Notes: generated by a model not told the origin, from the letters alone. DNA of 64,000 nucleotides from an uncultured virus (IMG/VR IMGVR_UViG_3300049491_001058) (IMGVR_UViG_3300049491_001058); one strand, 5' to 3'; positions 7,859 to 54,456 are shown, counted from the first letter of the stretch. Made by a program: numbers and translations.

Positions 7859-7864
7859 TTTGTT

Positions 7865-7893: not shown

Positions 7894-7899
7894 GGAAGC

Positions 7900-7978: not shown

Positions 7979-8033
7979 GTAGCCTAGTGAAAAGCTCTTG
8001 CCTTTGTTTGCTTTGGCTGGATAAACTGAAGCG

Positions 8034-8508: not shown

Positions 8509-9717
8509 ATGGGATTATTTTCTTTAGACGGCGACCAAGCTCTTTCATTGCTGAAAAGATATCTGCCCGGATCTCTTGCTGTCGGAGCTTCTGCTGCAGG
8601 ACTGAAGCATTTGGGCGGAATGCTCTATCAAATGGAGAAGGATAAGAAGGATAAACAGGAGAGGGGCGACGTCTTGACTGTTCAGATTCCCCAGGGATCG
8701 AAGATGGCGGCGTCTATTCCTGCTGCGGCAGCAGAGGCTCTAGAAAGAATGGCCGCCCAGGCAGCACATGCGGGCGAGAGCGGTGCGGCAACAATTATTC
8801 CAACCCCAGCCCTCTCCAGAACAGCAAAGGCAATGCAGGCGATCAAGAGTCATAAACTCATAACAGGCGGAGCTATCGCTGGCGCTGGTGCAACGGGGAT
8901 GGGGCAGGCAAAAGACTGGGACGACAATAAAGGTGCTCCGTCCGAACCGCCACCCTCTCTTTGGGATTCGGGAGGTATCGCGTCAACCATTATGCTTGGT
9001 GGCTTGGGTGGCTACAGCCTTGTTGATCACTTCATCAAAAAGAGACAAAAGAAGAATCTAGAAGAGCAGCTCGACGACTCAAAAAGAGAATACTCTCAGC
9101 TACTCGGAGCCAGCTTGGTAAAGGGGGCTTCAGTGGAGCCAAGTTTCCCTATTATTAGCGGCATCTGCTCGTATAAGGTGGAAAGGGGAGATCGTCCGCA
9201 GAAGGAAGCGGCTGCAGCGCTCACTCGCTTGATAGGAATCCCCACAGGTGCGGCGGCTGTTTCAGCTATTCTTGCTCACCGATGGATGTATGAAAGACAG
9301 AAGGAGCTTGAGAAGCTTCACACGGAGTCGAAACCTACACCACCAAAACAAATCCGGTTGGTTTCCGCACCGCCAGAAGCCCCAACTGACGACACTGATG
9401 ATGGAGAAAAACCTCTGGCGCTCGGCTTTGACAAAGGGGCCGCAGCGATGCCGGACTGGTTCGAATTCTTCAACAAGGTTCCCGCAGCTCCAGATGAGCA
9501 GGCCCTGAGGCAAACTCAGAAGCAGCAGGAGGAGGACGAGAAGAAGCAGCCCAAGATGACAAACATTGCTCCTGGTACTGTTCAGGTTTCCCTTCGCGAT
9601 GGACCGGTAGAGATTCTAGCTGAAGATCCGCGAGCAGCTAAGATCTTGAGCAAAGCTTCTCCTCGTTTGACAAAACTTCTCGCTGCTTTTCAATCCACTC
9701 CAGCAGACCTTCGATGA
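8509..9717 (+). CDS. Putative virion-internal membrane-associated protein (K-x-A segmented)
   Basis: KMA, KGA, KEA, KGA motifs; four Gly/Ala-rich hydrophobic helices, most followed by basic stretches. Confidence 0.65.
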   Translation: MGLFSLDGDQALSLLKRYLPGSLAVGASAAGLKHLGGMLYQMEKDKKDKQERGDVLTVQIPQGSKMAASIPAAAAEALERMAAQAAHAGESGAATIIPTPALSRTAKAMQAIKSHKLITGGAIAGAGATGMGQAKDWDDNKGAPSEPPPSLWDSGGIASTIMLGGLGGYSLVDHFIKKRQKKNLEEQLDDSKREYSQLLGASLVKGASVEPSFPIISGICSYKVERGDRPQKEAAAALTRLIGIPTGAAAVSAILAHRWMYERQKELEKLHTESKPTPPKQIRLVSAPPEAPTDDTDDGEKPLALGFDKGAAAMPDWFEFFNKVPAAPDEQALRQTQKQQEEDEKKQPKMTNIAPGTVQVSLRDGPVEILAEDPRAAKILSKASPRLTKLLAAFQSTPADLR

Positions 9718-9720
9718 GCT

Positions 9721-11199
9721 ATGATCACACTCCCGAGTGGCGTAAGATTGAGGGAGTTCTATAGTCCCACCGAAACTCGCGACGAGATTTTTCGCCGGGT
9801 CCAGGAGGGGTTTGAGAAACGCTTTCCGATGGAAAATGATTCCATTAGGATGGAGCTAGCGAACATTGGTTACGACGAGAAAAAGAAGAGGTTCTCGCTT
9901 GATGATCACCAGAATGCAGTTCTTTCTGGCGGTAAATTATCGACCCCTCTAAGAGCCAAAGTCAGACTGATCGACAAGAAGTTCAACGTGCCTCTGGACG
10001 AAAGGGATGTTGTTCTGGCGAATGTCCCATATATGACAGATGACGGTACCTTTGTAATCAAAGGGAACGCTTATTCTGTGAATAATCAGGCCCGCTTAAG
10101 GGCTGGAGTTTTTGCTAGAACAAAGGACTCAGGAGAGATGGAGTCCCATATCAATACGAAGTCCGGGACCGGCCCATCTATGCGTCTGTTTATGGAGCCA
10201 GAGACAGGCGTCTTTCGTGCATCAATCGACAAGTCGAATATCAAACTGTATCCAGTGCTCAGTGCCCTTGGCGTGACGGACGACCAACTGAAAGAAGCTT
10301 GGGGAGACAAAATTCTTGAGCAAAACCGCAAGGCCTGGGACAGGGGCGCTTTCAATAAGTTCTACGGCAAGATGCTTCGGCACCGAGCCAACCTGGAAGC
10401 CTCTGATGAGGAAAAGAAACAGCAGATATTGGATAGGCTCTCCATTGCACAACTCGACCCTGAAGTGACGACCCGAACCCTTGGTCGCCCCCACTCAAAC
10501 CTCTCGATGGACATGTTTCTCGATGCTTCCCGAAAGTTACTGAGAGTAAACCGAGGAGAGGAAGAGGAGGACGACCGCGATCATCCAGCCAACCGAACGG
10601 TTCACTCTGTTGACGATTTCCTTTCTGATCGTGTGTCGAAGGATGCAGGCAAACTTGGCAAGACACTTTTGTATCGAGCAACCTATGACCGATCATTGAA
10701 ACAGCTGCGCCCCGGTTATTTCACACCGCAGCTTGAAGGACTGATCATTGGTAACCAACTAAGCCAGCTTGTTTCTGGAACAAACCCTGTTGAACTGTAT
10801 GACCAACACAAGCGAGTGATCCAATTGGGTGAAGGCGGAGTTGGGTCCATGGATGGAATACCTATGTCATCTAGAAATCTTCATGCAGGTCACTTAGGTA
10901 TGATTGACCCAATCCGTTCCAGCGAATCAAAAGCTATTGGGGTTGATCAGCGCTTTACTGTCTCAGCAATGAAGGGCGATGACAATCTGGTCTACTATCC
11001 GTTGAGAAATCGGCGGACTGGACAAATTGAATACATGAACTCTGTCCAAGTAGCGGATAAGGCAGTAGCTTTTCCAAAAGCAACCTCCTTGGAGGGTTTT
11101 AAAACAATGATGCCGGCAGTACAGCCTGTGCCCCAGGCGCAAACAGGTGTAGTGCCGCCAATCGAACCGCCCAAAGCAACCGATCTTTTAAATCTATGA
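9721..11199 (+). CDS. rpoB: RNA polymerase beta subunit, N-terminal part
   Basis: VPYMTDDGTFVIKG...NQARLRAGVF, DDRDHPANR, SQLVSGTNP...KRVIQLGEGG and RNLHAGHLGMIDPIRSSE match conserved beta blocks. Confidence 0.92.
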   Translation: MITLPSGVRLREFYSPTETRDEIFRRVQEGFEKRFPMENDSIRMELANIGYDEKKKRFSLDDHQNAVLSGGKLSTPLRAKVRLIDKKFNVPLDERDVVLANVPYMTDDGTFVIKGNAYSVNNQARLRAGVFARTKDSGEMESHINTKSGTGPSMRLFMEPETGVFRASIDKSNIKLYPVLSALGVTDDQLKEAWGDKILEQNRKAWDRGAFNKFYGKMLRHRANLEASDEEKKQQILDRLSIAQLDPEVTTRTLGRPHSNLSMDMFLDASRKLLRVNRGEEEEDDRDHPANRTVHSVDDFLSDRVSKDAGKLGKTLLYRATYDRSLKQLRPGYFTPQLEGLIIGNQLSQLVSGTNPVELYDQHKRVIQLGEGGVGSMDGIPMSSRNLHAGHLGMIDPIRSSESKAIGVDQRFTVSAMKGDDNLVYYPLRNRRTGQIEYMNSVQVADKAVAFPKATSLEGFKTMMPAVQPVPQAQTGVVPPIEPPKATDLLNL

Positions 11200-11462
11200 A
11201 ACGCGCAACAATCTCTCTAGGCTATGGCAACCAAGGGGACGACTTTGCCCTTCACTTGGAAAAGTTTCCTGGATCATCCATGAACGCTATTGACTCGATG
11301 AGAAAGCAAATGGAAGGAGTCGCCAAGCATCTTGGTAAAATAGCCGAGTGCTTGTCAGGCTTTTCATGTGAAGGTGTTGAGGTAAGAGGTAGTGCTCGCT
11401 GCTTGTGGATCTCGGCCCCCGACGAAGTGATTGATGCGCTTGTGGCAAAAGACCTTGTATAA
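11196..11462 (+). CDS. Small hypothetical protein between the RNAP beta halves
   Basis: 88-aa ORF, ATGA overlap with the upstream gene. Confidence 0.6.
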   Translation: MKRATISLGYGNQGDDFALHLEKFPGSSMNAIDSMRKQMEGVAKHLGKIAECLSGFSCEGVEVRGSARCLWISAPDEVIDALVAKDLV

Positions 11463-11474
11463 TAAAAGACAGTC

Positions 11475-14400
11475 ATGCCAATCAAAAATCCAAACGCTGT
11501 CAGCCTCTTGGGTTCGAGTCCTCCTGTGGCTCGTCCACTTACTGCTGTTGTTCGTGGCGGCAAGATGACTCAGGTCGACGATGGCGAGGTGGATTATGAA
11601 TTAGTCAGCCCGAACCATCAATTCACTGAGACGTCGGCAGCCGTTCCTCTTGCCTCAACTATTAAAGGTGCTCGTCTCTTTATTGCATCCAAGTATGGCG
11701 TTCAAGCTTTGCCGCTGGTGAACCCAGACTCTCCTCTTGTTGACAATCTCGACGACGAGACTGGAGAGGGATACAATAAAACTCTTGGCCATAAGCTGGG
11801 ACTCAAGAAAGCTCATATTGGCGGGACAATTAAAAGGGTGTCCGAAAAGTTCATCGACATGGATGACGACGACGGGAAGACAACTCGCTTCGATATGAAG
11901 CAATACTTCCCGAACAATAAAAAGACTTATACTTCGGAGACACCGATGGTTGCCGTGGGTGACCGCGTAGAGATCGGCCAGCCAATCGCGAGAAATAACT
12001 TTGTCGATAAAGACGGCAGACTTGCGATGGGAAAGAATCTGACCGTCGCCTTTATGCCGGCACCTGGAGGCGATACTTTCGAAGACGCTATTGCTGTTTC
12101 CGAAAGCGCGGCAAAGAAAATGACATCGCCTCATTTGTTCGGGTTCGATATTGAACATAAGCACGGGACGAACAGTGAGAAAAATAAGTTCATTTCGTTA
12201 TTTCCGAACAAGTACACTAATGACCAGTTGGCGAAAATTGATGCGAACGGAATGATCAAGCCGGGAGTTCGAGTCAACCCAGGCGATCCGGTCCTTCTTT
12301 CGTTCGCTCCACGATCCCTCTCCTCTCGGGACGCGGCAATGGGGAACCTGTCGAAGGTGCTGAGGAATTCGTTTCAAGACCTTTCGCAGGAGTGGGACAA
12401 ATCAACAGAGGGGGTGGTCGCTCATGCAGTTGCTCATCGCTCCGGTCATGCAGTAAAGATTGCGACCAATACGCCATTACAGGCCGGGGACAAGGTCAGT
12501 GCGAGGTCGGGCGCGAAGGGGGTCATCAGCAAAATTATCCCTGATGACCAAATTATACGATCAAAGGACGGAACACCGATCGACATCTTTATTAATCCGG
12601 CTGCAATGATTGGCCGTGTTAATCCGGGAATGATTTTTGAATCCCTTCTCGGTAAGATTGCCCACAAACACAATCGTCGATACGACCTTCCTGGATTCTC
12701 CGATGACTCTTATCGTGATTACGTGGAGCACGAGCTCGCAGCTCATGGAGAATCCGATACCGAGGATCTTGACGATCCGGTCACCGGCAATACGATTCCA
12801 AAGGTCATCACTGGTCGTCAGTTCTTCATGAAGCTTGAACACGTTTCTGACTCAAAACAGTCGGGACGCGGCGATGGCGGAAGCGATATAAACGACCAAC
12901 CCACGAAAGGCGGGGAGGACGGCTGTTTCCCCGAGTGTCAAAAGATTCGGACAGCTTTTGGGACAATGGACATCGGACGCATTTGCGAGAAGAGAATAGG
13001 TGTTCCCGTCTTTACGTATTCAGAAAAACTAAATGAGTGGGTATTTAGGCCTATAACTGATTGGTTTATCAAAAGGTCTTCTGTTGACGACATATTAACG
13101 ATTGAACTGGAGGAGGCAATTCGTGACTGGAACTCCTCGGCCGAGCATCGGTCAAAAACAAATACATGCATCCATCCGACAAAAAACCACTGGATCTACA
13201 CTTTTGAAGGAGAGAAGAAGCAAGCTCAAGACCTTAAAATTGGAGACTCACTCGTATCTTGGGGGCCTAAACCAACAGATGACCAAATGTCTTTCCTTTA
13301 CGGAACAATGCTTGGAGATGGCTATTCTCACGTCGATGGCGATATCTTTGTTTGTAAGCATTCAATAAAGCAAATCACTTATTTAGACTGGAAGCAGAAG
13401 GTACTGTCTGGATTGTGCGCGACCAAGAGCGAATATAGAGAACGAACCAGCAAAAACTCAGCCACAGTAAAGCTTGGATACGCCCAGGAAGGAGACTTAT
13501 TTAATTATGGGATTGTGTCGTTCCAGGATGACGTCCTGTGCTCACACTTGAGGAGGTTTTGTTATTCAGGGCCGAGCGGCAAGAAAAAGCTGACGAAAGA
13601 GTGGTTAAGTAAGCTCGACGGACTAGCTATCGCTGCTTGGATTCTGGATGATGGATCGATCACAAATAAGTCTAAAAAGGCCGGAAAAGTGGCGCTGGGG
13701 GGCAGTGTCGCTACTCAGTGTTTTGAGAGAGAAGACGTGGAAATGCTTCGACAGTTTCTTTCTGAGAAATATGGTGCTGTATGCTGGATCTCTTCAGAAC
13801 AAGCCAAGAACGGACCGATCATTTCGTTCTCTGTTGAGATGTGCAAAGCGTTAATCCAAGAAATTGCTCAGTGGATTCCTGCTCAGTCGATACCTGGATC
13901 AAAAAGGTTCCTTGTAAAGCAGGTAGCAAAAATTCAGGAAGGCCGTTCTTTGAATTCAATAAATTCTGTCTGTGAGCTATCCAAGATACCTCTGAGAATA
14001 AAAGACATTCGAAAGTTTTCTCCAGATAAACCGAATACAACAGAGGTAAATGTTTATGACTTTACTGTTCAGGAGACTCATTCTTATGCCGCAGGCCCAG
14101 TATTGGTATCAAACAGTAAGCGTTTAGGTGGTCTTCAAAATTACGCCCTCCTGTCTCACGGTGCTGATCAAGTCCTGAAGGATGCCCATCTTTATCGCGG
14201 ATCATCGAATGTCGATATGTGGCGTCGCCTTAGGTTAGGGGAGTCACTGCCCGCGCCCAAGGTTCCGTTTGTCTATGATAAGTTTTTGAACTCGCTCAAA
14301 GGGGCCGGGATCAACACGAAGCCGGACGCAGACGGAAGACTGAAGATTCTCGCTCTCACCGACAAAGATGTGGATGAGATGGCTAAACATGAGATTCAAA

Positions 14401-15725
14401 ACTCGGAAACGATTAGCCATAAAGATGGATCGCCTATCAAGGGCGGGATGATGGATTTTTCGCTACACGGTGGACCAGCGGGACTGGGTTGGTCGAAGAT
14501 CGCTTTGGATGAGCCAATGCCTTCTCCTGTTATGGAGGAGCCAATTCGACGTCTGCTTGGGATTACCGAAAAACAAATGCGCGGCATTATTGCCGGGACT
14601 GACTCGATCGGCGGCAAAAAGGGGCCACAAGCTCTCCACGACGCACTGAAGGCGATCAATATTGACCAGATGATCGAGAGCGACAGAGAGACTATTCGCT
14701 TAGGAAGGAAGGGCAAAAGGGACGAAGCTGTTCGCCGGATGAACTATGCTCTAGGCTTGAAAAAGTCTGGACTCGAGCCGTCAGAAATGATGATCACCAA
14801 GATTCCCGTCATTCCTCCAGCATATCGCCCGGTCACGGTGATGGGTAATATGCACCTCACCTCAGACGCAAACTATCTGTATAAAGATCTGATGTCTTCC
14901 CGTGACGCTTTTCGATCAAACAGAGAAGAGCTTGGGGATGATGATCTATCTAATGAGCGTCTGGCTATCTACGATTCCATCAAAGCTATTCAAGGCCTTG
15001 GTGACCCAATTAATATCGAGACAGCAAACAAAGGAGTAAAAGGATTCATTCGTCAGATTGCTGGAGTTGGCGGTCCAAAGACGGGATTTTTTGCATCCAA
15101 AGTTATTGGTCATCCGGTCAACGCTGTTGGTCGAGCCGTTATTGTTCCAAATGCCGACCTCAATATGGATCAGGTGGGCATCCCTCATAAAATGGCTTGG
15201 AATATGTTTGGGCCATTCGTAATGCGCTCAATGGTTCGCGAGGGGATGCCCGCAACTGAGGCAGCCAAGAAGGTGGAAAAGCAGGACCCCTTTGCTTTGA
15301 AGCATCTGCAAAAAGTAATGGCGGAGCGACCAGTGATGTATAGCCGAGATCCGGCGCTTCACAGGTTCTCCATTATGGGAGGGATGCCTGTACTGTCTGC
15401 GGGGAACAATATCCAGATGTCGCCCTTGGTTGTGAAGCCTTTTGGTGCCGACTATGACGGAGACCAAATGAATATTCATGTTCCTGTGTCAGACGAGTCC
15501 GTCAAGGAGGTTAAGGAGCGGATGATGCCAAGCAAAAACCTCTTTGGTCTCAGAGGGAAGCAGGTGCATTACCTCCCCAGCCAAGAGTTTACCCTTGGTA
15601 TCTTCGGAAGCACAAAGCAGCGCCCAAAAACACAGTCAATACATTTTAAAAGCAAGGAAGAGGCTGTTGCTGCTTACAAAGCTGGCCTTATTCCTATTGA
15701 CCAACCGATTACGATTGATGATTGA
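11475..15725 (+). CDS. RNA polymerase beta C-terminal / beta' N-terminal fusion (both catalytic barrels), intein-containing
   Basis: Beta blocks GKNLTVAFM...FEDAI, GDKVSARSGAKG, NPAAMIGRVN, MKLEH; beta' blocks IPVIPPAYRP, GRAVIVP, SRDPALH, catalytic GADYDGDQM, PSQEFTLG. Confidence 0.95.
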   Translation: MPIKNPNAVSLLGSSPPVARPLTAVVRGGKMTQVDDGEVDYELVSPNHQFTETSAAVPLASTIKGARLFIASKYGVQALPLVNPDSPLVDNLDDETGEGYNKTLGHKLGLKKAHIGGTIKRVSEKFIDMDDDDGKTTRFDMKQYFPNNKKTYTSETPMVAVGDRVEIGQPIARNNFVDKDGRLAMGKNLTVAFMPAPGGDTFEDAIAVSESAAKKMTSPHLFGFDIEHKHGTNSEKNKFISLFPNKYTNDQLAKIDANGMIKPGVRVNPGDPVLLSFAPRSLSSRDAAMGNLSKVLRNSFQDLSQEWDKSTEGVVAHAVAHRSGHAVKIATNTPLQAGDKVSARSGAKGVISKIIPDDQIIRSKDGTPIDIFINPAAMIGRVNPGMIFESLLGKIAHKHNRRYDLPGFSDDSYRDYVEHELAAHGESDTEDLDDPVTGNTIPKVITGRQFFMKLEHVSDSKQSGRGDGGSDINDQPTKGGEDGCFPECQKIRTAFGTMDIGRICEKRIGVPVFTYSEKLNEWVFRPITDWFIKRSSVDDILTIELEEAIRDWNSSAEHRSKTNTCIHPTKNHWIYTFEGEKKQAQDLKIGDSLVSWGPKPTDDQMSFLYGTMLGDGYSHVDGDIFVCKHSIKQITYLDWKQKVLSGLCATKSEYRERTSKNSATVKLGYAQEGDLFNYGIVSFQDDVLCSHLRRFCYSGPSGKKKLTKEWLSKLDGLAIAAWILDDGSITNKSKKAGKVALGGSVATQCFEREDVEMLRQFLSEKYGAVCWISSEQAKNGPIISFSVEMCKALIQEIAQWIPAQSIPGSKRFLVKQVAKIQEGRSLNSINSVCELSKIPLRIKDIRKFSPDKPNTTEVNVYDFTVQETHSYAAGPVLVSNSKRLGGLQNYALLSHGADQVLKDAHLYRGSSNVDMWRRLRLGESLPAPKVPFVYDKFLNSLKGAGINTKPDADGRLKILALTDKDVDEMAKHEIQNSETISHKDGSPIKGGMMDFSLHGGPAGLGWSKIALDEPMPSPVMEEPIRRLLGITEKQMRGIIAGTDSIGGKKGPQALHDALKAINIDQMIESDRETIRLGRKGKRDEAVRRMNYALGLKKSGLEPSEMMITKIPVIPPAYRPVTVMGNMHLTSDANYLYKDLMSSRDAFRSNREELGDDDLSNERLAIYDSIKAIQGLGDPINIETANKGVKGFIRQIAGVGGPKTGFFASKVIGHPVNAVGRAVIVPNADLNMDQVGIPHKMAWNMFGPFVMRSMVREGMPATEAAKKVEKQDPFALKHLQKVMAERPVMYSRDPALHRFSIMGGMPVLSAGNNIQMSPLVVKPFGADYDGDQMNIHVPVSDESVKEVKERMMPSKNLFGLRGKQVHYLPSQEFTLGIFGSTKQRPKTQSIHFKSKEEAVAAYKAGLIPIDQPITIDD
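12924..14114 (+). mobile_element. Intein with LAGLIDADG homing endonuclease (397 aa) in RNAP
   Basis: Starts CFPECQKI, ends VYDFTVQETHSYAAGPVLVSN|S; LAGLIDADG-like blocks LYGTMLGDG and AAWILDDGS; removal restores QPTKGGEDG|SKRLG. Confidence 0.92.
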
Positions 15726-15762
15726 TTATTGCTGAGTAAGCTCAGTATCTCTTCTCAAAAAA

Positions 15763-16164
15763 ATGAACATCCCATTCCTTTCTTTTCTCGCTCAAGCCAC
15801 CTCCGAAGATCGTGTCGAATATTGGATCAGAGTGGTGCCGGCCCTGCTTGATCGGGTGGGGTTCCCGGTCATTGTTGTGGGTTTGTTGAGCTGGTTTTTC
15901 GTGATGTTTCTCAAGTGGGCAACACCCAAGCTCGATGCGTGTATCGCAGCCTGGGTTAGATCTAAGGATGCGATGACTGAGTCCTATAAGGAAACGACAA
16001 AGATCGTATCGAAGCTTTCTGAGGAAATGCAAAGGATCCAATTGGACCAGCACCATACCTTAATCGAACTCAAGAACGGCTTGATTCAGGTATGCAAACA
16101 TAGCCAGTGCAGCCTCTCTGTTGGTAATCAAATCAGTGCCGCCAGCCAAGGCAAAAAAGAATGA
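15763..16164 (+). CDS. Single-TM holin-like membrane protein with coiled coil
   Basis: VGFPVIVVGLLSWFFVMFL helix followed by a heptad-like helical tail. Confidence 0.45.
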   Translation: MNIPFLSFLAQATSEDRVEYWIRVVPALLDRVGFPVIVVGLLSWFFVMFLKWATPKLDACIAAWVRSKDAMTESYKETTKIVSKLSEEMQRIQLDQHHTLIELKNGLIQVCKHSQCSLSVGNQISAASQGKKE

Positions 16165-16925
16165 AACCTTTTATTGAGCAATTTCAGTCAGTAACAAAGA
16201 CTCTCGATGTTTTGCCGTCAGCAAACGTTAGTTCATCGACGGCTGATTTCTCAATGAGTTTCATTGGGAACGCGATGCAGACGGTATCTGTTTTCGTCAT
16301 TACATTTCTGATCATGAAGATCGTGATTCAGAATTGGTCCAGGATTGGGCATGACCTCAGGTGGTTGCTTTGTCACTTCTCTTTTTTTGTGGCATGCTTG
16401 GGAGTTGTAAAGATTTGCTATATTTGTGGATGGCTTATGTCCAGTCCGCCCCTTGGATCTTTCTTCATAATCTTTTCGGGCGTTGTTGGAGTATCTTTGG
16501 TCCGGCACCTTCATTGGTTCCAAAAGAACACGATCGAGTTCAGACGGCTGATGTCTTTAATAATGGAGGAATTTACAAAAGACATTCTTCCCCAGATCGA
16601 GGTGGGGATGTGGAAATGGACCTTTGAAACAGAAGACGCTCCAGAGAATCTTGAGTGGGACCTGATGGAGCATAAGATATTTGGAACCAATCCAGATACG
16701 TTTCAAAACACTTATGCGGAGTTTGCCTCCCTGGTTCACCCAGAAGATCGAGAAAGAATGAGCAGAGAGATTGACGAGGCTATTCAAAAAGGAACTATTT
16801 TCAGTTACGAGATGCGAATAAGCGATCAGTGCGGTGGGTGGAAAAAAGTTTACGGGCGAGGGTCGGTGTTTAAAGATTTATGTGGCAATCCGATTTATAT
16901 GGCAGGAGTTAATTTTTCGAGTTGA
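16161..16925 (+). CDS. Membrane protein (about 3 TM) with a C-terminal PAS/PAC domain and no output domain
   Basis: VGMWKW...LEWD...IFG...LVHPEDRERM...YEMRI...GWKKVYGRG...GNPIYMAGV is a PAS_3-type signature. Confidence 0.85.
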   Translation: MKPFIEQFQSVTKTLDVLPSANVSSSTADFSMSFIGNAMQTVSVFVITFLIMKIVIQNWSRIGHDLRWLLCHFSFFVACLGVVKICYICGWLMSSPPLGSFFIIFSGVVGVSLVRHLHWFQKNTIEFRRLMSLIMEEFTKDILPQIEVGMWKWTFETEDAPENLEWDLMEHKIFGTNPDTFQNTYAEFASLVHPEDRERMSREIDEAIQKGTIFSYEMRISDQCGGWKKVYGRGSVFKDLCGNPIYMAGVNFSS

Positions 16926-16934
16926 TTACCGCAA

Positions 16935-19529
16935 ATGCCCTCGCTCCTTCCCTCTCCTTCATCAGCCCCCTTGGCGCCGAGCCTTACAGCAGGGCAGCTG
17001 GTAAAAGGTTTTGCTCCGGGCGTCGCTGCTACTATTGCGTATCCTGTTGCAGCAATTGGGGCTTCAAGGTTGATGCCACAGGCAGATAAGGAGTATGTTG
17101 CTGATACAAAAGGAGCCCCCCTAAGCTCTCTGTCTGGGGTTGGCCAGAGAATGAGCGCCCTCGATGGCAGAGGGAAGTGGAAATACGAAGCCGGTGACTC
17201 TTTAATGAAGTGGCTGGACTCCGATAGTGCTTCTTGGTTTGCCAATAACCCAGCAACAGCAAAGTATTCAGTTCCGCTTATGGGGGCAATGCAGGCCGCT
17301 GGCGAAGTGTCGCTAGGGGTGCCCATTGGCCGAGCGGTTGTCGATACGACCGAGAATGTTGCATCAAACATAGGCGCTCCAGTTGCAGCAGGAGCTTTAT
17401 TGAGAAAGGCGACACCCTACTTTACCCCAGAAGGTCTCACTTCTTCCATTATTGGGGCAAAAGCGATGTCTTTGCCAAGGACGATTGGATCCGGTCTAGC
17501 GTCGGCGGCCGCGGTCAAGGCGAACCAGATAGGTCAGCACTATCTAGGGCTCGATGCAGAAGCTGGGACCCTTGGGCGGAGCAACGAATTATCTGCTCCA
17601 GCAAATACACTCAATGCCTGGAAGCCATACACTAGAGCTTTTGGCGATATCGCCTCGGGGGCAAGCGCTGGTGCTGCTACAGGTGGAGCTCCAGGAGCAA
17701 TCGGTGGAGCTGTTTACGGAGCCACGCAAGAGCCGACAGAGCAGTATCGAGCTCTTCAGAGGATAAATGAGATCAATAATCGGGCGCACCATTCCGCGAA
17801 CAATAACCTGCTTGAGTTGTTGATTAACCCGAGTGTCCCGTTAAGCCGTTTCGGCGATGGACCTGGACAGCTAAAACTAAAAGACTCTACGTCCTTCTGG
17901 GATAAGCTAAAAGCAATGAATTTTGAGGACAACAGCCTGTCCCAAGAGAATATAAATCTCGCTCTCTCTGAACGCAGAAGACTGTCTGGAGAGATGGACA
18001 AAGACAACAGGCTGTGGGCAGACCCAAAACCAAGGTCGGAAAGGGCGGCAGGGGAGGAGACGACTCTTAATCCTGACAGCGCATACTCGCCAAAAGAAAG
18101 AATAAGCAAAGAGCTCAGTAGCGGCGAATACGCTCGACTAGGTGGCGGTAATTTTGAACAAGCAATTAAGGCCGACGAGGGAAGAAAAGGCCTTTCCTCG
18201 GCGCTGAGACTTGGGGGAGGAGCTTTGGCTGCAGGAGCAGGTATATACGCCCTGAGAAAACTTTTCGCTAAGAACAAAAAGAGAAAAACTGAGGAAGAAG
18301 AAATGAGAGATAGTAATTTTGTTCCAGCTGCACCAAAGATCGCTCGATGGATGTTTAAGGGGGCGGACTTGCCCCAAGTTTCATCAATGACCTCAAGTGC
18401 CGCGACTAACATTAATCCAAGACCTGGACCTGTAGGATCAAGATTGAATCCAATAAACTTGGGCGAGACTTCTTGGACTACGGAAGATCAGGCCGCTAAA
18501 GGAGAACCCAGTAATATAGGGCCGGATCCTTTTTATCCTCAGCGTCGAGTCAGTCGTCCAGTCAGCGTTAATGCAAGCCCTCCCGACCATCCTTTAGATA
18601 GAATGGGTATCGATTGGAACCGCAAGGGTTTACGTCCTGATCCTGCTCCGCCTGCTGCAGCAACGCCACCTACTCCAGTAGTCCGCCACGCACCGATTCA
18701 GCCGACGGCTCGTCCCACGACAAGTACGCTGATGACTCCAAGACCAATCGGCTATGGAACACTTGGTGGCAGCTCCACTCCATTGACTAGTCCTGGCCCG
18801 CTAAATGGATCGACTTCTAGTATTTTTCAACCACAGCCTGTCCAGACAAAGCCTGTCCAGACAAAGTCATCTATTCCTTCGCCAATCCAGCCTGCAGCAA
18901 AGGCCCCAGCGGCTCAAGTTGAACCTCTTACTCCCGCACCCGCAGCAGGGACCTGGACCTCTCAGCCCTTGCCAAAAGACACAACGCATGACGGTGCTGG
19001 ATTCCACTCACCAGTGACCACGGCAGGCGGAACAAAAAATGTCGCGTTTACCCCGACGTCTAGACAGGCCATGGATTTCAGGGTTCCTGGCTATGGACAG
19101 ATGACGCCAGAACAAAGAGGTCAATCATTAAGCGCTCTTCCTTCTCCCGTTCGGCCAGTTGGCCAGACCATCCCAAATTATAATCCGCCATCCAACATCA
19201 AGGGCGAAAGACTCTTGATGGATGGAACAAAAGAGGTTGACCCATCAAAAGAGCTTCTTCGCCCTCATCCATATTCCACTGGCCCTGGAACTAAAAGCGT
19301 CGATGTTGCAAAGCAATATGCGGGAGGGAGCGGTGTAGGCTCGGTTACAATTGGTCGCCCGAGGATCAATAGTATTGATTTTCCTGGAGCTCGAAGCGGA
19401 GTGATTCGTGACGAGACTGGCGATGTGACGGCTAAAATCCGAGGCTCGCTGGTGGATAGATTTTATGGTAGACCGGGTCTAACGACACTAAAGAAAACTT
19501 CGGGACTTACAATTCCACGCTGGATATGA
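16935..19529 (+). CDS. Large Gly/Ala-rich putative virion protein with Pro-rich C-terminal half
   Basis: 864 aa; glycine zippers; GGGALAAGAGIYALRKLFAKNKKRK; KIA and KGA motifs. Confidence 0.65.
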   Translation: MPSLLPSPSSAPLAPSLTAGQLVKGFAPGVAATIAYPVAAIGASRLMPQADKEYVADTKGAPLSSLSGVGQRMSALDGRGKWKYEAGDSLMKWLDSDSASWFANNPATAKYSVPLMGAMQAAGEVSLGVPIGRAVVDTTENVASNIGAPVAAGALLRKATPYFTPEGLTSSIIGAKAMSLPRTIGSGLASAAAVKANQIGQHYLGLDAEAGTLGRSNELSAPANTLNAWKPYTRAFGDIASGASAGAATGGAPGAIGGAVYGATQEPTEQYRALQRINEINNRAHHSANNNLLELLINPSVPLSRFGDGPGQLKLKDSTSFWDKLKAMNFEDNSLSQENINLALSERRRLSGEMDKDNRLWADPKPRSERAAGEETTLNPDSAYSPKERISKELSSGEYARLGGGNFEQAIKADEGRKGLSSALRLGGGALAAGAGIYALRKLFAKNKKRKTEEEEMRDSNFVPAAPKIARWMFKGADLPQVSSMTSSAATNINPRPGPVGSRLNPINLGETSWTTEDQAAKGEPSNIGPDPFYPQRRVSRPVSVNASPPDHPLDRMGIDWNRKGLRPDPAPPAAATPPTPVVRHAPIQPTARPTTSTLMTPRPIGYGTLGGSSTPLTSPGPLNGSTSSIFQPQPVQTKPVQTKSSIPSPIQPAAKAPAAQVEPLTPAPAAGTWTSQPLPKDTTHDGAGFHSPVTTAGGTKNVAFTPTSRQAMDFRVPGYGQMTPEQRGQSLSALPSPVRPVGQTIPNYNPPSNIKGERLLMDGTKEVDPSKELLRPHPYSTGPGTKSVDVAKQYAGGSGVGSVTIGRPRINSIDFPGARSGVIRDETGDVTAKIRGSLVDRFYGRPGLTTLKKTSGLTIPRWI

Positions 19530-20149
19530 GCATTAAACCACGACAACAAATTTCATCCGAGCTTCTGGTAGTTCCTGACCCACAAGTTCCATCAGAAGTC
19601 TTTCTTATTGCTCGCGATTCAGCAAAAGGAGAGTCGGCGTTTTACTTTTCTAGCAACGGAGGGAAAAGTTTCAAGGCTCTTATCCCTGCTCCTACCAAAA
19701 AAAGCAGAGCCGGATCAGTACTTACTCTGGCGGACGACCTTTCTGCTGAATGGAGGTTTCAAGGGGCGGCCCGACAGTCTTCTGTGTCATCGAGCGCCGG
19801 AGGAAGTTTCTTTGTTCCGTTTCAACTAGTGGGCGATCTCTCGGAAGGAGTCGTCGTCGGATACTTCAAAGTGCCGGTAGGGAAAACAGCGCTAATGAGA
19901 GAGCTGCAGGTGTCAGTCCAGGACACGGCGGACTTGCCGATAATAATTGACGTAGTGAACGGATCAGGGGTGGCGCAAGGAAGAGCGATAACTCTTGCTT
20001 CGGGCTCTAAACATTTTACCTTCACGTTCCCGACACCACTCAGTCTTTCGTCTAAATCTATCTGGATGATGAAGGTCTTGAGTTGTGGATCAATATCGGC
20101 TCCTGGAGCCAACCTAACAATCCTGGCTGGAATAGAATACACATCATGA
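19526..20149 (+). CDS. Hypothetical beta-rich structural protein (fibre-like)
   Basis: 207 aa, ATGA overlaps at both ends, beta-strand-rich C-terminus. Confidence 0.5.
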   Translation: MSIKPRQQISSELLVVPDPQVPSEVFLIARDSAKGESAFYFSSNGGKSFKALIPAPTKKSRAGSVLTLADDLSAEWRFQGAARQSSVSSSAGGSFFVPFQLVGDLSEGVVVGYFKVPVGKTALMRELQVSVQDTADLPIIIDVVNGSGVAQGRAITLASGSKHFTFTFPTPLSLSSKSIWMMKVLSCGSISAPGANLTILAGIEYTS

Positions 20150-20685
20150 ATCGCGATCTCCTCAATCAAGCTCTCGTCGCTATCCAAGCGATGGACTCCA
20201 AGTCTGTAAAAAAGGCCTTTGTTCCTGGCCCATCTGTTCAGGGCCAGCTCCAGCAGCTTCAGGCAATGGCTGCCGAGCAAGCATCCAGTGGGCAAGCTGC
20301 GCAACAGGCGACGGAGCAGATTCAGGCTCAGGCCCAGGGAGCCCCGCCAATGATGCGGATTGAAGATATCGCTCAAATGCTGGATCAAGCAATGCAGGAA
20401 ATAACACAACTGATTAGCCAGTTGCCTCAGCAGATTTCCCAGATGATGACGCAAATGCAGCAACAGACTGCAGCCCAACAGCCAGCCGCTCAGGGAGCTA
20501 AGCCAAAGAAGGAGGATATGATTGCTCAAAAGCTCGACAATATTGCTCAGCTTTTACAGCAAGCGATGGGAGCTCCTCCTCCAGCGCCTCCGGGAGCAAT
20601 GGGGGCTCCGCCAGTTGATCCAGCCCAGCAAGATCCCGCCGCTCAGCAGCCCCAAGACCCAGCAGCACAACAACCAGCTCAGTGA
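20146..20685 (+). CDS. Gln/Ala/Pro-rich low-complexity protein
   Basis: Start at ATG 20146 (ATGA overlap); KKA|FVP motif near the N-terminus. Confidence 0.7.
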   Translation: MNRDLLNQALVAIQAMDSKSVKKAFVPGPSVQGQLQQLQAMAAEQASSGQAAQQATEQIQAQAQGAPPMMRIEDIAQMLDQAMQEITQLISQLPQQISQMMTQMQQQTAAQQPAAQGAKPKKEDMIAQKLDNIAQLLQQAMGAPPPAPPGAMGAPPVDPAQQDPAAQQPQDPAAQQPAQ

Positions 20686-20924
20686 TCACGACCGTAAGAA
20701 GTAATCCTTTCGGACCTCCATTATTGGAGACGAAGGAGGCCACTTGGATAGATATCAGGGATGATCAAGGGCACTTGATTTATATTCTGGTGTTTATGCC
20801 AGGAGGAACAGCATTCATTACGTCAAACAGGAACGATCCGGACTTCGAGGAAACGGCCAAGAATTTTCACATCCCCCTTCTAAAGACAGATGAGATCGAT
20901 CACTCCAGGCCGACTGCTATTTGA
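20682..20924 (+). CDS. Small hypothetical protein
   Basis: 80 aa, GTGA overlap with the upstream stop. Confidence 0.6.
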   Translation: MITTVRSNPFGPPLLETKEATWIDIRDDQGHLIYILVFMPGGTAFITSNRNDPDFEETAKNFHIPLLKTDEIDHSRPTAI

Positions 20925-22785
20925 GCAAATCGTTCCGCCAGAATTTATGGAGGGGATCGATGATGGTCCTATTGACTCGTCAAAAATGAAGAACATCCTT
21001 CAGTCGGTGGCTGAAAAATCCCCTGACAGGTACAGGGATATCTCCCATGCGATATTGAAGATGGGGGCAAAGACCTCCAATGAGGTCCCGACCAGCTTCA
21101 GCCTAGAGGATTTGAAGTCTCCTATAGATATGAAGTCGCACATGGGGCAGATAGCTCTAAAGGAGAATGCAATCCTTTCGGACAAAAGCTTGACCCCAAA
21201 ACAAAGGAACGGGCAACTGATCAAGCTCTACGGCGAGCAGTCCAACTCGATGCCTGATATTATTTATCGAGCGGCCCAGGCGAAGGATTCGAACCTTGCC
21301 AGGATGGTCGCCTCCGGAGCTCGAGGAAATAAAGGGCAGTTGAACAGTAATATCGGCGCTGACTGGTTGATGTTGGACGCGAACTCTGACCCTATCCCTG
21401 TTCCGATCAAACATAGCTACGCTGAAGGCCTGAGTCCTGCGGAATACTTCGCCTCGGCATACGGGACCAGACGCGGTTTACTTAGCACAAAATTTTCTGT
21501 CCAACAATCAGGGTATCTCTCAAAACAGTTAAGTGCTGCAGCTCATGACCTTGTCGTCTCCGAAAAGGATTGCGACACTCACCGCGGATACCCAACCTCA
21601 CCTGACGATAAAGATAATATCGGAGCGGTGATGGCGGTTGATGCCGGCGGATTTCCGGCTGGAACCGTCGTGACATCAAGGGTTTTGAGTCAGCTGAAAA
21701 GCAATGGCGTTTCGAAGATGACAGTCAGAAGCCCACTGACTTGCACGGCAAAGAATGGTGTTTGTGCCACTTGTGCTGGTGTGGGAGCTAGGAACAAATT
21801 CCCCGAGATCGGAGAGAGAGTTGGGCTTGCAGCAGCATCATCAGTAGGGGAGCCCCTTAGTCAGTCTACTCTAAGCGAGAAGCATAGCGGAGGAGTTGCG
21901 TCCTCATCCGGCAAGGCTGTCTCCGCTTTCAAAAGCATCGACGCCCTAGTTCAGGTCCCCGATAACTTCCCAAATGGCGCAACGGTTGCGAGTAATGATG
22001 GGAGAGTGACAAAGGTTGAGGCGGCCCCACAGGGAGGCAGCTATATTTACGTTGGCGACAAACAGCATTATGTTGCTCAAGGAATGGATCCCAAAGTAAA
22101 GATGGGAGACACTGTCGAGGCGGGCGACAGCCTTTCCTCTGGTGTCCCAAATCCGTACGACATCGTGAAACATAAGGGAGTCGGACAAGGTCGAGTTTAT
22201 TTCGTGGATGCTCTTCGCGATACGCTGAGGAGTAACAACATTTCAGCAGATCGTCGTCAGCTCGAATTTCTCGGAAGGGCTTTGGTGAATCACGTCAAGG
22301 TCACAGACCCTGAAGGATATGGATCACATCTCCCTGATGACGTTATCGAATACAGCGCCATTGAGCAGGATTTCGAACCAGAAAACTCTTTCAAGTCGGC
22401 TCCGGGAAAAGCTGAAGGCAAATATTTGGCCAGACCGACGCTCCATTATTCTCTTGGAACAAGGATCACTCCATCGGTGATCAAGGGGATTGAGGACGGT
22501 GGAGAAAAAGAAATCGACGTCATGGATTTGAGCCCAGGGTTTGAGCCAGAGATGCAACGAGTAATGGATAATCCAAGCTTCAAGCCTGACTGGTTAGCTC
22601 AGTTCGCTGGCTCGGGACTGAAAAAAAGAATGCTTCAGAACGTTCACTCCGGCGATGCCTATAGTGACCCGAACGGCGCTTCATATATTCCAAGCCTAGC
22701 GAAAGGGGTTGGGTTTGGAGATCCAGTAGTAAAGAAGCCAGTTGATTTTATAAAACCCCTAGCAAAGCCACTCCCTTTGCTATAA
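20890..22785 (+). CDS. rpoC: RNA polymerase beta' subunit, C-terminal part
   Basis: MVASGARG; bridge helix EGLSPAEYFASAYGTRRGL...SGYLSKQL; Zn site DC...RSPLTC...GVCATC; trigger loop GEPLSQSTLSEKHSGG. Confidence 0.93.
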   Translation: MRSITPGRLLFEQIVPPEFMEGIDDGPIDSSKMKNILQSVAEKSPDRYRDISHAILKMGAKTSNEVPTSFSLEDLKSPIDMKSHMGQIALKENAILSDKSLTPKQRNGQLIKLYGEQSNSMPDIIYRAAQAKDSNLARMVASGARGNKGQLNSNIGADWLMLDANSDPIPVPIKHSYAEGLSPAEYFASAYGTRRGLLSTKFSVQQSGYLSKQLSAAAHDLVVSEKDCDTHRGYPTSPDDKDNIGAVMAVDAGGFPAGTVVTSRVLSQLKSNGVSKMTVRSPLTCTAKNGVCATCAGVGARNKFPEIGERVGLAAASSVGEPLSQSTLSEKHSGGVASSSGKAVSAFKSIDALVQVPDNFPNGATVASNDGRVTKVEAAPQGGSYIYVGDKQHYVAQGMDPKVKMGDTVEAGDSLSSGVPNPYDIVKHKGVGQGRVYFVDALRDTLRSNNISADRRQLEFLGRALVNHVKVTDPEGYGSHLPDDVIEYSAIEQDFEPENSFKSAPGKAEGKYLARPTLHYSLGTRITPSVIKGIEDGGEKEIDVMDLSPGFEPEMQRVMDNPSFKPDWLAQFAGSGLKKRMLQNVHSGDAYSDPNGASYIPSLAKGVGFGDPVVKKPVDFIKPLAKPLPLL

Positions 22786-22797
22786 CTTTGGAAAATT

Positions 22798-52322: not shown

Positions 52323-53704
52323 CTATTGTCGGAAAGGAAGGAGAGCCGTGCAAAGTAAAGGCCTATCTGACAGGTCCGGGAGGCGAAATACCCATCTCTG
52401 GAGCTAATGCGCTTTTCTCTGTTGGATCGATTCCTGTTTGTCGAGTCTTTATTCCTCCTGAGTTTTTGTCTCAAATCCCGGACGAGCAGACGCCCGACCT
52501 CTATAGGGTCAAGGTTTCAGGAGAAGATTCCGAGTATACCTTGTTTACAGGCTATGTGGCCGGCGATAGCGGAAGAATTGGGGACGGCAAGGTGTCCGCT
52601 GGTGTCGATCTTGTTCATCCGGCAAGAGACTTAGATGAAACTCGCTTGTCGGGTCCTGACCTTCATCCGTCCAGTGTTTCGGATTACTCATCTGTCTGGT
52701 CAGGAGGTTTTACTGAAGCTGGACAGGCGTACGAAGGCAAGCCGGAATTCTTCAAGGCTGGAGGGGGTAAGCTTCCAGAGCAAATAGTTGCAGCGATGAA
52801 GAAGCATCTAACTGGACTATCTAGCTCACTGACAGAGAAGGCGGGCGGAGCTGTTAAAAAGGATACCCTACAAAAGGGCATAGATTTGCTTGGGAAGATC
52901 AAGTTTTTAGACGGGCAGATAAAGGGAGAGCTTGAAGCGCCACTAGCTTCTGGCGAGGGGCATTGCATTAACGAGTGGGCCAGATCTCGGGTCACAGGTT
53001 CCTTTAATACGGCGAGAAGTGCATGGGATACCCTGGTCGCTGTTTTTTCTGAATTCGGTATCTATCTGGTCTGCGATAACGAGGGTGGAATATTTACTTC
53101 GGTTGACTGTTCGGGGATGAAATCGTCTGCCAATGAGATGGGAGGGAACTACATCTCCACTTGGGACAAAAACTCCGCTATGTTTAGGAACATTGGCGAA
53201 GTTTTGATTGCCGGAGATAACGTGAGGCTGGTCAACTTTAGTGCCGAGGGTAAACCTGGGGGGTTTGTTACTTACTCTGGTGGCAAAGGAGGAGCCACTC
53301 TTGTTCTGCAGGTTCCCGGATGGCTAAATCCGATCGCAAAAACAAATGACGACGGGGACGGGATCGTTGAGGCTCAGAAGCTATATGCCAAAATGGTCTA
53401 TGGGTTGGAGAGAAATAAGTTTCGAACGATGTGTGTCACTGGCCCACTGGCTCCTCTTACTGTTCCTGGAACGGTTGTCCAGGTGTCTCCGTTTTCAAAA
53501 ATGAAACCGAAATCCGGCCAAGGCATTGAGGATCTTGGTCGAAAATACAGTGCCTATTGTCATCAAATATCCCATGAAATAGATATGCCAGGACAAGTAA
53601 TGAGAACTACATTCCAGTTCAAAAATGTCTCGATCATGGGCAGCGGCGAAGAGATAGACTCGCATCCCGTCTTTGGTGACGTAACCCCTTTTGCCTGGAA
53701 ATGA
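52319..53704 (+). CDS. Baseplate hub protein, putative
   Basis: 461 aa, hub-like size and position; C-terminal PGTVV...YCHQISHEI...TTFQF beta pattern. Confidence 0.5.
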   Translation: MTIVGKEGEPCKVKAYLTGPGGEIPISGANALFSVGSIPVCRVFIPPEFLSQIPDEQTPDLYRVKVSGEDSEYTLFTGYVAGDSGRIGDGKVSAGVDLVHPARDLDETRLSGPDLHPSSVSDYSSVWSGGFTEAGQAYEGKPEFFKAGGGKLPEQIVAAMKKHLTGLSSSLTEKAGGAVKKDTLQKGIDLLGKIKFLDGQIKGELEAPLASGEGHCINEWARSRVTGSFNTARSAWDTLVAVFSEFGIYLVCDNEGGIFTSVDCSGMKSSANEMGGNYISTWDKNSAMFRNIGEVLIAGDNVRLVNFSAEGKPGGFVTYSGGKGGATLVLQVPGWLNPIAKTNDDGDGIVEAQKLYAKMVYGLERNKFRTMCVTGPLAPLTVPGTVVQVSPFSKMKPKSGQGIEDLGRKYSAYCHQISHEIDMPGQVMRTTFQFKNVSIMGSGEEIDSHPVFGDVTPFAWK

Positions 53705-54456
53705 ACGAAGCTCCAATACCTACCCCAATAGAAGAGGATCCAGTGATTGAGGTTCCTATGTCGTCATGGGAATCCTGGAAAAAGGCTCCGTCACCGGCAG
53801 CCATGTCAACAGCTATCAAAAGCATTGATCCGGTCATAAGCTCTGCGGTTCGCCGTCACCCTGGAATTAACGAGAACCTCCTGATGGGCGAGGCAAAGCG
53901 CCTTGCCGTTCAGGCGATAAAAAGTTTCGATCCGGTCCAGGGGACTTCGCTCTCTACTCATGTCTTTAATCACCTCCGCCCATTGTCCCGCTTTGCCGAG
54001 AGGGCGACAAAAGCTGTTTCTGTCCCTCGCGATTTCAAGGCTGAGGTTGGCGGCTTTGTCAAGGCTCGGCGAGATTTCGAAGAGGAGAATGGCAGAGAGG
54101 CTTCGGATGGAGAAATGCGAGACATCCTTGGCATCAACGCCAAAAGGCTGGCCAAACTGAACGCGGGGACTTTCTATGAAATGCCGGAAGGACAAATAGA
54201 GGGCGCGGTCGAACAGGAGGATGATGAAAGTCCAAAGTTGAACCTTTGGGCTGACTACGTTTATCATGACCTATCCCCGAGAGATAAACTGATAATGGAC
54301 TATCGAATGGGGAGAAACGGCAAGCCGATAAAAGAGCCCCAAGAAATAGCAGCAATACTAAAGATGGATCCCTCTCACGTCAGAAAGAGGACGAAGTCTA
54401 TTGCACAACAGATCCTTGATGGATTAGACTCCAGTTCACTAAACGGAAATGCCTGA
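53701..54456 (+). CDS. Sigma-70 family RNA polymerase sigma factor (regions 2-3-4)
   Basis: QAIKSFDPVQGTSLSTH (region 2), FEEENGREASDGEMRDILGI (region 3), LSPRDKLIMDYRMG...QEIAAILKMDPSHVR (region 4 HTH). Confidence 0.85.
   Translation: MNEAPIPTPIEEDPVIEVPMSSWESWKKAPSPAAMSTAIKSIDPVISSAVRRHPGINENLLMGEAKRLAVQAIKSFDPVQGTSLSTHVFNHLRPLSRFAERATKAVSVPRDFKAEVGGFVKARRDFEEENGREASDGEMRDILGINAKRLAKLNAGTFYEMPEGQIEGAVEQEDDESPKLNLWADYVYHDLSPRDKLIMDYRMGRNGKPIKEPQEIAAILKMDPSHVRKRTKSIAQQILDGLDSSSLNGNA

Follow-up and report, generated by a model that had tools for sequence, protein, structure and literature searches.

The 64,000-nucleotide stretch of DNA analysed here (IMG/VR IMGVR_UViG_3300049491_001058; hereafter "the window") comes from an uncultured tailed phage of the group of Salmonella phage Arash. 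It is part of a 78-kb contig, and sequencing runs from freshwater and freshwater sediment contain its DNA. The window encodes a multisubunit RNA polymerase (RNAP) whose two large subunits, beta and beta', are divided over three chains. Every long open reading frame (ORF) between 9721 and 22785 lies on the + strand, and three of these ORFs cover beta and beta' in order: beta-N, a beta-C::intein::beta'-N fusion, and beta'-C. The polymerase genes and their parts, with positions counted from the first letter of the window, are:

9721..11199, + strand: beta-N chain, 492 aa, no Cys; lobes and rifampicin (Rif)-pocket/fork region, then a disordered Pro/Ala-rich tail
11475..15725, + strand: middle chain, 1416 aa (1019 aa after removal of the 397-aa intein), assigned by Pfam matches
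11475..12923, + strand: beta-C part of the middle chain (N-extein, residues 1-483), beta double-psi barrel (Rpb2_6)
12924..14114, + strand: 397-aa intein with LAGLIDADG homing endonuclease (LAGLIDADG_2, E 1e-19)
14115..14321, + strand: C-terminal end of beta, residues 881-949, aligning with Arash gp206 from its residue 939
14322..15725, + strand: beta'-N part fused in frame, with clamp, lid and beta' barrel (Rpb1_1, Rpb1_2)
20890..22785, + strand: beta'-C chain, 631 aa (Rpb1_5, E 2e-24)

Pfam matches and alignments to the E. coli chains bear out the statement of an earlier note on this DNA that the three ORFs hold the conserved blocks of beta and beta' in order. Beta-N matches Rpb2_2 and Rpb2_3, aligns with E. 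coli beta 48-231 and 420-617, the Rif-pocket block included, and is 29% identical to residues 12-507 of Arash gp206. Its AlphaFold2 (AF2) model has a mean predicted local distance difference test (pLDDT) score of 77.9, falling below 50 in the tail (residues 460-492). The public gene call for this protein (P0123) begins 43 codons downstream and gives 449 aa, leaving out window 9721-9849; we prefer the 492-aa reading because from residue 13 onwards the longer ORF aligns with Arash gp206. When beta-N is aligned to E. coli beta, its Rif-pocket block (residues 346-373, nt 10756-10839) has Ser and Gln at two positions, 516 and 531, which we take to be classical rifampicin-resistance hot spots, and His 526 is kept. 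The enzyme may, judging from these residues, be insensitive to rifampicin.

The middle chain has Pfam matches to Rpb2_6 at residues 138-479 (E 4e-46), LAGLIDADG_2 at 606-791, Rpb1_1 at 1067-1153, and Rpb1_2 at 1278-1350 (E 1e-24), and PDB beta chains match it at E 9e-39. Its N-terminal part aligns with E. coli beta 643-891, and the lysine block of the beta barrel, G-x-K-G-V-I-S-K, is conserved at residues 346-353. The break in beta after the Rif-pocket region, which the earlier note had described, therefore lies between about E. coli beta 617, where beta-N ends, and about 643, where beta-C starts; this is a surface loop. The same note had placed a junction lacking a stop codon, from the C-terminus of beta into the N-terminus of beta', at about 14300-14360. 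We locate it within a single ORF at nt 14265-14357, with the C-terminal block of beta at residues 931-949 (nt 14265-14321) and the N-terminal block of beta' following in frame at residues 955-961 (nt 14337-14357). The beta'-N part aligns with E. coli beta' 160-544 and with cyanobacterial gamma 189-548, and has the catalytic D-x-D-x-D motif as D-Y-D-G-D at residues 1326-1330 (nt 15450-15464), D1326, D1328 and D1330 being at least 90% conserved. Both double-psi barrels, with the beta lysine block and the beta' D-x-D-x-D motif, thus sit on the middle chain, and removing residues 484-880 leaves the 1019-aa spliced chain that had been predicted to carry them. The bridge helix (residues 142-161) and trigger loop (residues 317-338) are on another chain, beta'-C, as the Rpb1_5 match and the aligned blocks agree; beta'-C aligns with residues 580-1110 of the Firmicute beta' 8i23_D and is 29% identical to Arash gp216.

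The intein (residues 484-880) is inserted in a conserved beta block immediately before the beta C-terminus. It has Cys1, T-x-x-H at residues 564-567, two LAGLIDADG-type motifs, a terminal Asn, and Ser at +1, and by sequence it is a class 1 intein in all but its penultimate residue. Intein-free relatives are continuous across the insertion site, with Ala or Ser at +1; among the matches listed, four relatives have an intein at the same site and others have inteins elsewhere in the gene. A second intein (Hint and LAGLIDADG_3, residues ~169-397) occurs in the window's homologue of Arash gp222 (29396-31876), an ORF with 17 cysteines, compared with few in most large proteins of the phage.

All 12 cysteines of the middle ORF lie inside the intein. 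The polymerase exteins and the other two chains together have four cysteines in 2142 aa, compared with an average of 0.70% in the other ORFs of the window, and these four (C228, C285, C292 and C295 of beta'-C) are the ligands of beta' zinc site II. The N-terminal zinc site of beta' is absent, the beta'-N extein having no cysteine, so that of the two zinc sites of a bacterial-type RNAP site II is kept and the N-terminal one is lost. Among 68 beta'-C sequences, 32 keep all four site II ligands (the window and Arash included), 34 have them replaced, and 2 are partial rows without these columns, so that not every member of the family has lost this site.

The best matches among deposited phages were Salmonella phage Arash and Vibrio phages D69, D181 and D148. 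In Arash the protein annotated "RNA polymerase subunit beta", gp206 (1525 aa), matches beta-N first (29% identity) and then both exteins (35% and 31%). This pattern, together with the alignment of gp216, implies that Arash has a whole beta fused to beta'-N and a separate beta'-C. Beyond the polymerase the window is collinear with the structural module of Arash: beta'-C is followed by homologues of gp218, gp220, gp222, gp226 (major capsid), gp233, gp234, gp236 (sheath-like), the sigma factor gp10, gp13 and gp14. The sigma gene is:

53701..54456, + strand: sigma-like factor, 251 aa, no Cys (phrog_351 "RNA polymerase sigma factor", E 5e-7)

Over 202 residues this protein and Arash gp10 share 31% identity. 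A search of the 51 window ORFs with Pfam (E <= 0.01) found no alpha or omega family, in agreement with the earlier note, which had recognised neither subunit. The families PF01000, PF01193 and PF01192 were likewise found in none of five complete or nearly complete relatives, namely Arash and four IMG/VR genomes with an estimated completeness of 92-100% (controls 14 of 14). Each of these five genomes has one beta' barrel locus, which indicates that the family, unlike the phiKZ-type phages, has one polymerase set.

The fused polymerase belongs to a large family. A search of a large protein collection gave 1651 matches at E <= 0.001 out of 8000 candidates. All 120 of the matches listed contain both Rpb2_6 and Rpb1_2, on contigs of up to ~210 kb; by BLAST the beta-N part is present in 74 of them and lacking in 46. 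An alignment-based scan of IMG/VR confirmed at least 415 of 593 pattern stretches as relatives, the best 80 being on contigs of up to ~235 kb, and a scan with the intein-bearing chain as single protein gave 14 pattern stretches, none of them confirmed. Chain layouts were read from the ORFs of 81 loci, the best 80 of the at least 415 IMG/VR relatives plus Arash:

two chains, beta::beta'-N and beta'-C: 56 of 81 loci
fused chain, with beta'-C beyond the fetched stretch: 12 of 81 loci
all in one ORF of ~1975-2400 aa: 6 of 81 loci
beta and beta'-N as separate ORFs: 4 of 81 loci (one through an in-frame stop, its twin locus being intact)
beta-C::beta'-N with no beta-N in the ORF: 3 of 81 loci (one partial)

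At least four chain layouts therefore occur in the family: one chain, two chains, and two kinds of three chains. Beta is fused to beta' in 77 of the 81 loci, and these counts show that the fusion and the cut of beta' after the barrel are family traits and that the three-chain form is a minority. The three-chain layout is a derived variant of a large family of fused phage RNAPs. The earlier note had proposed that the split-plus-fusion layout may define a distinct RNAP class. The layout is real, and belongs to a phage RNAP lineage that is easily aligned to bacterial RNAP and lies within a structural module, but it does not amount to a class, because the usual layout is the two-chain one and the beta cut is limited to one clade. 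A full-text search of the literature for phage RNAP fusions yielded no description of a beta::beta'-N fusion in phages of this kind, and the fused family is essentially undescribed.

Two further features of the relatives were observed. Six distant loci (L068, L070, L071, L078, L079 and L080) have a complete natural one-ORF fusion of beta to beta'. Many two-chain relatives (P0053-P0119) have extra Pfam domains within the beta-N part, in chains of 1650-2300 aa; these are PF22547 (in many), SET (PF00856), a GNAT acetyltransferase, and a LigT-like domain (PF02834).

The history of the beta cut was examined in a maximum-likelihood tree of the shared beta-C and beta'-N region (68 rows, 996 columns, LG+G4), with branch support from the Shimodaira-Hasegawa-like approximate likelihood-ratio test (SH-aLRT). 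The tree separated 18 rows, all with whole beta, from a clade of 50 rows (SH-aLRT 100) in which 41 are split, 6 whole and 3 partial. The window grouped with P0004, which is split, and P0005, which is whole. Well-supported branches force at least five changes between split and whole within the window's clade, each of which could on this tree have been a fission or a re-joining. Judged from these sequences, the beta cut is a secondary gene fission that has been made or undone repeatedly in the window's clade.

The two ends of the cut resemble each other, and a gene unrelated to the polymerase, which the earlier note overlooked, lies between them:

11173..11196, + strand: C-terminal motif of beta-N, A-x-x-[LYFM]-[LI]-x-[LFIV], in its last 8 residues
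11196..11462, + strand: 88-aa gene in the beta cut, no polymerase part, member of a small-protein family
11496..11516, + strand: degenerate copy of the motif at the head of beta-C (residues 8-14), resembling the terminal motif of beta-N

Among 56 matches of beta-N length at E <= 1e-10 there are 47 stand-alone beta-N proteins of 440-560 aa. Thirty-three of the 47 have the motif at the C-terminus, with at most two further residues, whereas truncation points drawn at random fit the pattern in 0.3% of cases. An alignment of 31 of them shows a variable tail in which A486 and L490 (numbered as in the window) stand out at 90% conservation or more. A like motif occurs within the first 14 residues in 16 of 37 beta-C::beta'-N proteins. 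In all 51 ORFs of the window the pattern occurs five times, and two of these occurrences are the cut ends of the polymerase.

In the window's clade the surface loop of beta has grown into a long, disordered linker. The whole forms within the clade have a Pro/Ala-rich linker of 40-120 aa with two copies of an A-A-D-L-L-type motif, whereas the loop in Arash is only a few residues long. Some of these linkers have a conserved insert of ~60 aa between the copies. In P0005 the copies are six residues apart, as would be expected of the remnant of a beta-N gene ending in the motif fused to a beta-C gene starting with it.

Since the tail of beta-N (residues 460-492) has pLDDT below 50 in the AF2 model, it is apparently not docked on beta-N itself. 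The motif could be a purpose-built signal, either a docking pair for reassembly or a packaging or processing tag, through which beta could be split and fused again without hindrance. The 1019-aa chain would then be the natural minimal catalytic core of an alpha-less, sigma-dependent RNAP whose separate pieces arrive with the virion and are put together again in the host. We put this forward tentatively and consider it, on balance, doubtful. A reading of the motif as a sliding-clamp-binding site was set aside, as the Arash annotation lists no clamp. An acidic-hydrophobic D-[LM]-[LFA] word resembling the cut-end motif was also seen within the first 22 residues of four of the 51 ORFs (2250-3842, 8034-8462, 22798-26304 and 51100-51561), compared with 1.1 expected (P ~0.025, post hoc), a weak hint of a shared N-terminal signal.

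The 88-aa ORF overlaps the stop codon of beta-N (ATGA) and ends 12 nt ahead of beta-C, in whose frame it lies, with two stop codons between. At E <= 1e-3 its family numbers 26 representatives, with a single exception 88-139 aa long, and many have long acidic tails; a 757-aa relative contains nine repeats of the N-terminal half. Neither Pfam nor PHROG has a family for the protein. Its AF2 model (pLDDT 96.7) has the fold beta-alpha-alpha-beta-beta-alpha, for which Foldseek gave no usable match in the PDB (best E 0.19). None of eight IMG/VR loci with homologues of the gene has it near polymerase genes. The protein has three cysteines, unlike the Cys-free polymerase parts beside it. Homology of the 88-aa ORF to the inserts in the linkers of whole beta was considered and rejected (best BLASTP E 0.21).

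We regard it as likely that this phage of the Arash group encodes a bacterial-type, sigma-using RNAP as three chains, a derived fission variant with a tethered, alpha-less core that is delivered by the virion. The three-chain variant is probably functional. Virion delivery and alpha-independent assembly, which we infer, are well motivated.

Several points count against this interpretation. The three chains are known here from sequence alone. The tree was a quick search with SH-aLRT support only, and the split state was called from protein content, mostly without genomic context. Two three-chain relatives in IMG/VR (L002 and L003) show no beta-N in their upstream flanks of ~3.5 kb and ~9.9 kb. 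The terminal motif is not confidently placed in the AF2 model of beta-N, and the penultimate residue of the intein is Ser in place of the usual His. The genomes checked for alpha and omega are two-chain relatives, and the window is 64 kb of a phage of probably 180-230 kb, so that alpha, omega or a second polymerase may be encoded elsewhere. Packaging is carried over from a relative at ~30% identity, and the authors of the Arash paper allow that enzymes present in abundance could simply have co-purified with the virions (PMC10585845). The sequencing run (X1) that supports the locus at full length is the probable source sample of the window and not independent biological support, and two runs of another study (X2 and X3) gave short identical pieces only, none of them across the beta cut.

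The alternative that best survives these points is a three-chain enzyme that is real and unpackaged, made after infection for middle and late genes while the host polymerase reads the early ones. Its genes lie within a late-type structural module, and putative sigma-70-like features and terminators occur in several intergenic regions. Presence in the virion is known for Arash only, where the co-purification caveat applies. In Arash, however, the fused chain Gp206 has the top spectral count (3516) of all virion proteins in mass spectrometry, and beta'-C (Gp216, 1210 spectra) and the sigma factor (Gp10, 100% coverage) were detected as well (PMC10585845). Furthermore, the relatives have a single polymerase set per genome, and the polymerase and sigma factor of the window are nearly Cys-free whereas the adjacent inserted non-polymerase genes are Cys-rich. 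We therefore consider an unpackaged enzyme unlikely. The earlier note had suggested that the polymerase is possibly packaged in the virion, and this is plausible through the Arash orthologues gp206, gp216 and gp10, which rank among the most strongly detected proteins of purified virions; for the window's own enzyme we infer it from those data, the collinear structural module and the depletion of cysteine, and it is probably packaged.

The break in beta could also be unbiological, that is, an assembly or sequencing error or a recent pseudogene of a two-chain polymerase. Close relatives with whole beta do exist (P0005 and P0011, at 65-76% identity), and the sole full-length support is the probable source sample. 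The earlier note had named assembly error as something that reads might reveal. Run X1 gave a Logan contig of 17,037 nt that matches the window over 9739-23100 without a difference or gap, at a depth of ~17 and with no variant. Because this second assembly reproduces all of the breaks identically, the breaks and the fusion are not specific to one assembler. The stand-alone beta-N (47) and beta-C::beta'-N (41) proteins are common in the clade, the conserved motif is kept at both ends, and a well-folded, conserved foreign gene fits the gap exactly, with its ATGA stop/start overlap and a tandem stop ahead of beta-C. An unbiological break is therefore very improbable.

It is just as improbable that the two halves of beta are joined after all, by a self-splicing intron carrying the 88-aa ORF or by a split intein, to give a mature two-chain enzyme as in Arash. 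Introns are known in phage polymerase genes, the same gene hosts an intein, and the Sokolova 2020 review mentions a proposal that split RNAP genes arose through intron mobility. Against joining, no Rfam family was matched in 9000-24000 at E <= 1, the tails have no Hint or intein signature, and the 88-aa protein is no homing endonuclease by Pfam or PHROGs and has its relatives in unrelated phage contexts. The cut ends, moreover, are conserved as true protein termini in dozens of relatives.

Recent acquisition of rpoBC from a host, with rearrangement in a single phage and no old phage lineage behind it, might explain the easy alignment to bacterial beta and beta' (PDB matches down to E 1e-50), but is hardly credible given that the 120 best matches listed are all fusions of the same kind, that the relatives number at least 415 on IMG/VR viral contigs, that the PDB matches are far weaker than those to phage relatives (down to 1e-281) with residue matching visibly partial, and that the N-terminal zinc-site cysteines are missing, unlike in bacterial beta'.

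The enzyme can be compared with several known polymerases. It has the marks of a two-barrel RNAP of bacterial type, namely the lysine block of the beta barrel, the D-x-D-x-D motif of beta', and the bridge helix and trigger loop, and lacks, within the window and the five relatives, the alpha dimer and omega. Its closest counterparts are Arash (OQ632216; PMC10585845) and Vibrio phages D69, D148 and D181, which share the in-frame beta::beta'-N fusion, the beta'-C gene that follows separately after a few kb, the gp10-type sigma factor, and a place within the structural module. In Arash, too, the only cysteines of beta'-C are the four zinc site II ligands. Arash differs in having a whole beta (in the 1525-aa chain), no intein, and a short loop where the window has a separate beta-N ORF followed by an unrelated gene, and the identity is 29-35%. 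The Arash paper labels gp206 "subunit beta" and does not use the words "fused" or "fusion" (PMC10585845).

The mReC phages of Weinheimer and Aylward (2020, PMC7481178) are likewise uncultured tailed phages with an RNAP alignable to cellular beta and beta'. The criterion for mReC was a pair of separate proteins, neither shorter than 800 aa, whereas the chains of the window have 492, 1416 (1019 spliced) and 631 aa, one of them bearing the barrels of both beta and beta'. In the rows listed, the mReC pairs are of ~1000 and 900 aa or ~1360 and 1005 aa in neighbouring genes, and none of the words "fused", "fusion", "split", "sigma", "virion" and "intein" is used of mReC in the main text of the paper. 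Identity with mReC was rejected on chain layout, for the part of the mReC supplements compared (PMC7481178).

The phiKZ/AR9-type enzymes also have two barrels and no alpha or omega, with beta' cut just after the barrel and beta in N and C pieces, and one of their two sets is packaged in the virion, according to a 2020 review of jumbo-phage RNAPs. They come as two sets per genome, with no beta-beta' fusion and no recognisable sigma factor, whereas the window's family has one set (five of five genomes) and a sigma factor. Their divergence is also far greater: of the AR9 enzyme, chain 7s00_C matches the barrel only (E 8e-16), while the chains of the window align strongly with bacterial ones. The cut in beta' of phiKZ/AR9 coincides with the cyanobacterial one, according to the same review.

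Cyanobacterial and plastid RpoC1/RpoC2 have beta' cut in the same region as the window, after the catalytic barrel, but beta is separate and alpha and omega are kept. The cuts are close and not identical. The beta'-C chain of the window starts ~14 aligned residues before cyanobacterial beta' (8gzg_Z), its residue 28 aligning with RpoC2 residue 14; the middle chain stops short of the end of gamma, near residue 560 of 625. In Helicobacter two whole subunits are fused, beta then beta', in a cell with alpha, and Wolbachia has a full-length beta::beta' fusion. Archaeal RpoB is split into B'' and B', which, as with the beta of the window, separates an N-terminal half from the C-terminal half that has the barrel. 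The fusions of Helicobacter, Wolbachia and crAss-like phages resemble the window's family in having a covalent tether, beta then beta', and six loci of the family are fully one-ORF. The single-chain RNAP of crAss-like phages is too divergent to align with beta and beta', according to the mReC paper (PMC7481178).

In the working that we propose for the three-chain enzyme, the intein would splice out to give a 1019-aa two-barrel chain as the catalytic centre, onto which beta-N and beta'-C would dock as in the uncut enzyme. The covalent tether between beta and beta' would take over the assembly role of the missing alpha dimer, and the phage sigma factor (53701-54456) would steer the enzyme to phage promoters. 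The enzyme would be packed in the virion as in Arash, enter the host with the DNA, and start transcription. Virion delivery fits a polymerase with no cysteines beyond the four zinc ligands.

Between the two parts of beta' the window holds a block of other genes:

15763..20924, + strand: six variable cargo ORFs between beta'-N and beta'-C, of 133, 254 (PAS fold), 864 (no Cys), 207, 200 and 80 aa

The spacing between beta'-N and beta'-C is 5.1 kb in the window and 457-6363 nt in 56 relatives. In the 81 related loci, the only cargo ORFs with homologues are the 207-aa one (one locus) and the 80-aa one (four loci). The PAS-fold protein (16161-16925) matches PAS_3 (E 8e-16) and has six cysteines. 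The 864-aa Cys-free protein (16935-19529) belongs to no family, is without homologues among the 81 related loci, and may be another ejected protein.

Elsewhere in the window, a 1188-aa multidomain protein (3877-7443) has an InPase domain (PF18823, E 2e-48, residues 833-967), which is common to giant polyvalent phage proteins, and its N-terminus resembles phosphoheptose isomerase and polynucleotide kinase. Terminator-like GC-rich hairpins, with a GAAA-type loop and then a T run, occur in the gaps 7859-8033, 34271-34506, 36061-36173, 37615-37725 and 45019-45136. On the + strand there are exact copies of CCATTTGAT at three positions only, 698, 34343 and 36862; each is intergenic with a gene downstream, and they were noticed post hoc. 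With one mismatch allowed, CCATTTGAT gave 21 matches in the window compared with 20.7 expected, and TGATAAACT gave 17 compared with 12.9 expected, neither of which is an enrichment. CCATTTGAT is a possible candidate promoter element that is not significant window-wide.

Cellular RNAPs need an alpha-type platform to join their two large subunits. The family described here appears to manage without this platform by welding beta to beta', and yet uses a sigma factor; in its sole cultured case, Arash, the enzyme has been found in the virion. The family is abundant, occurring on hundreds of contigs of up to ~235 kb. Its chain layouts mark where a two-barrel polymerase tolerates cuts and tethers, and the three-chain form has both barrels on a 1019-aa chain with a conserved motif at the cut ends. 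Knowledge of the tolerated cuts and tethers would help in designing split or minimal polymerases, and bears on the question of how evolution assembled the large subunits. As Arash can be grown on a laboratory strain of Salmonella, alpha-independence, sigma use and virion delivery can be tested directly.

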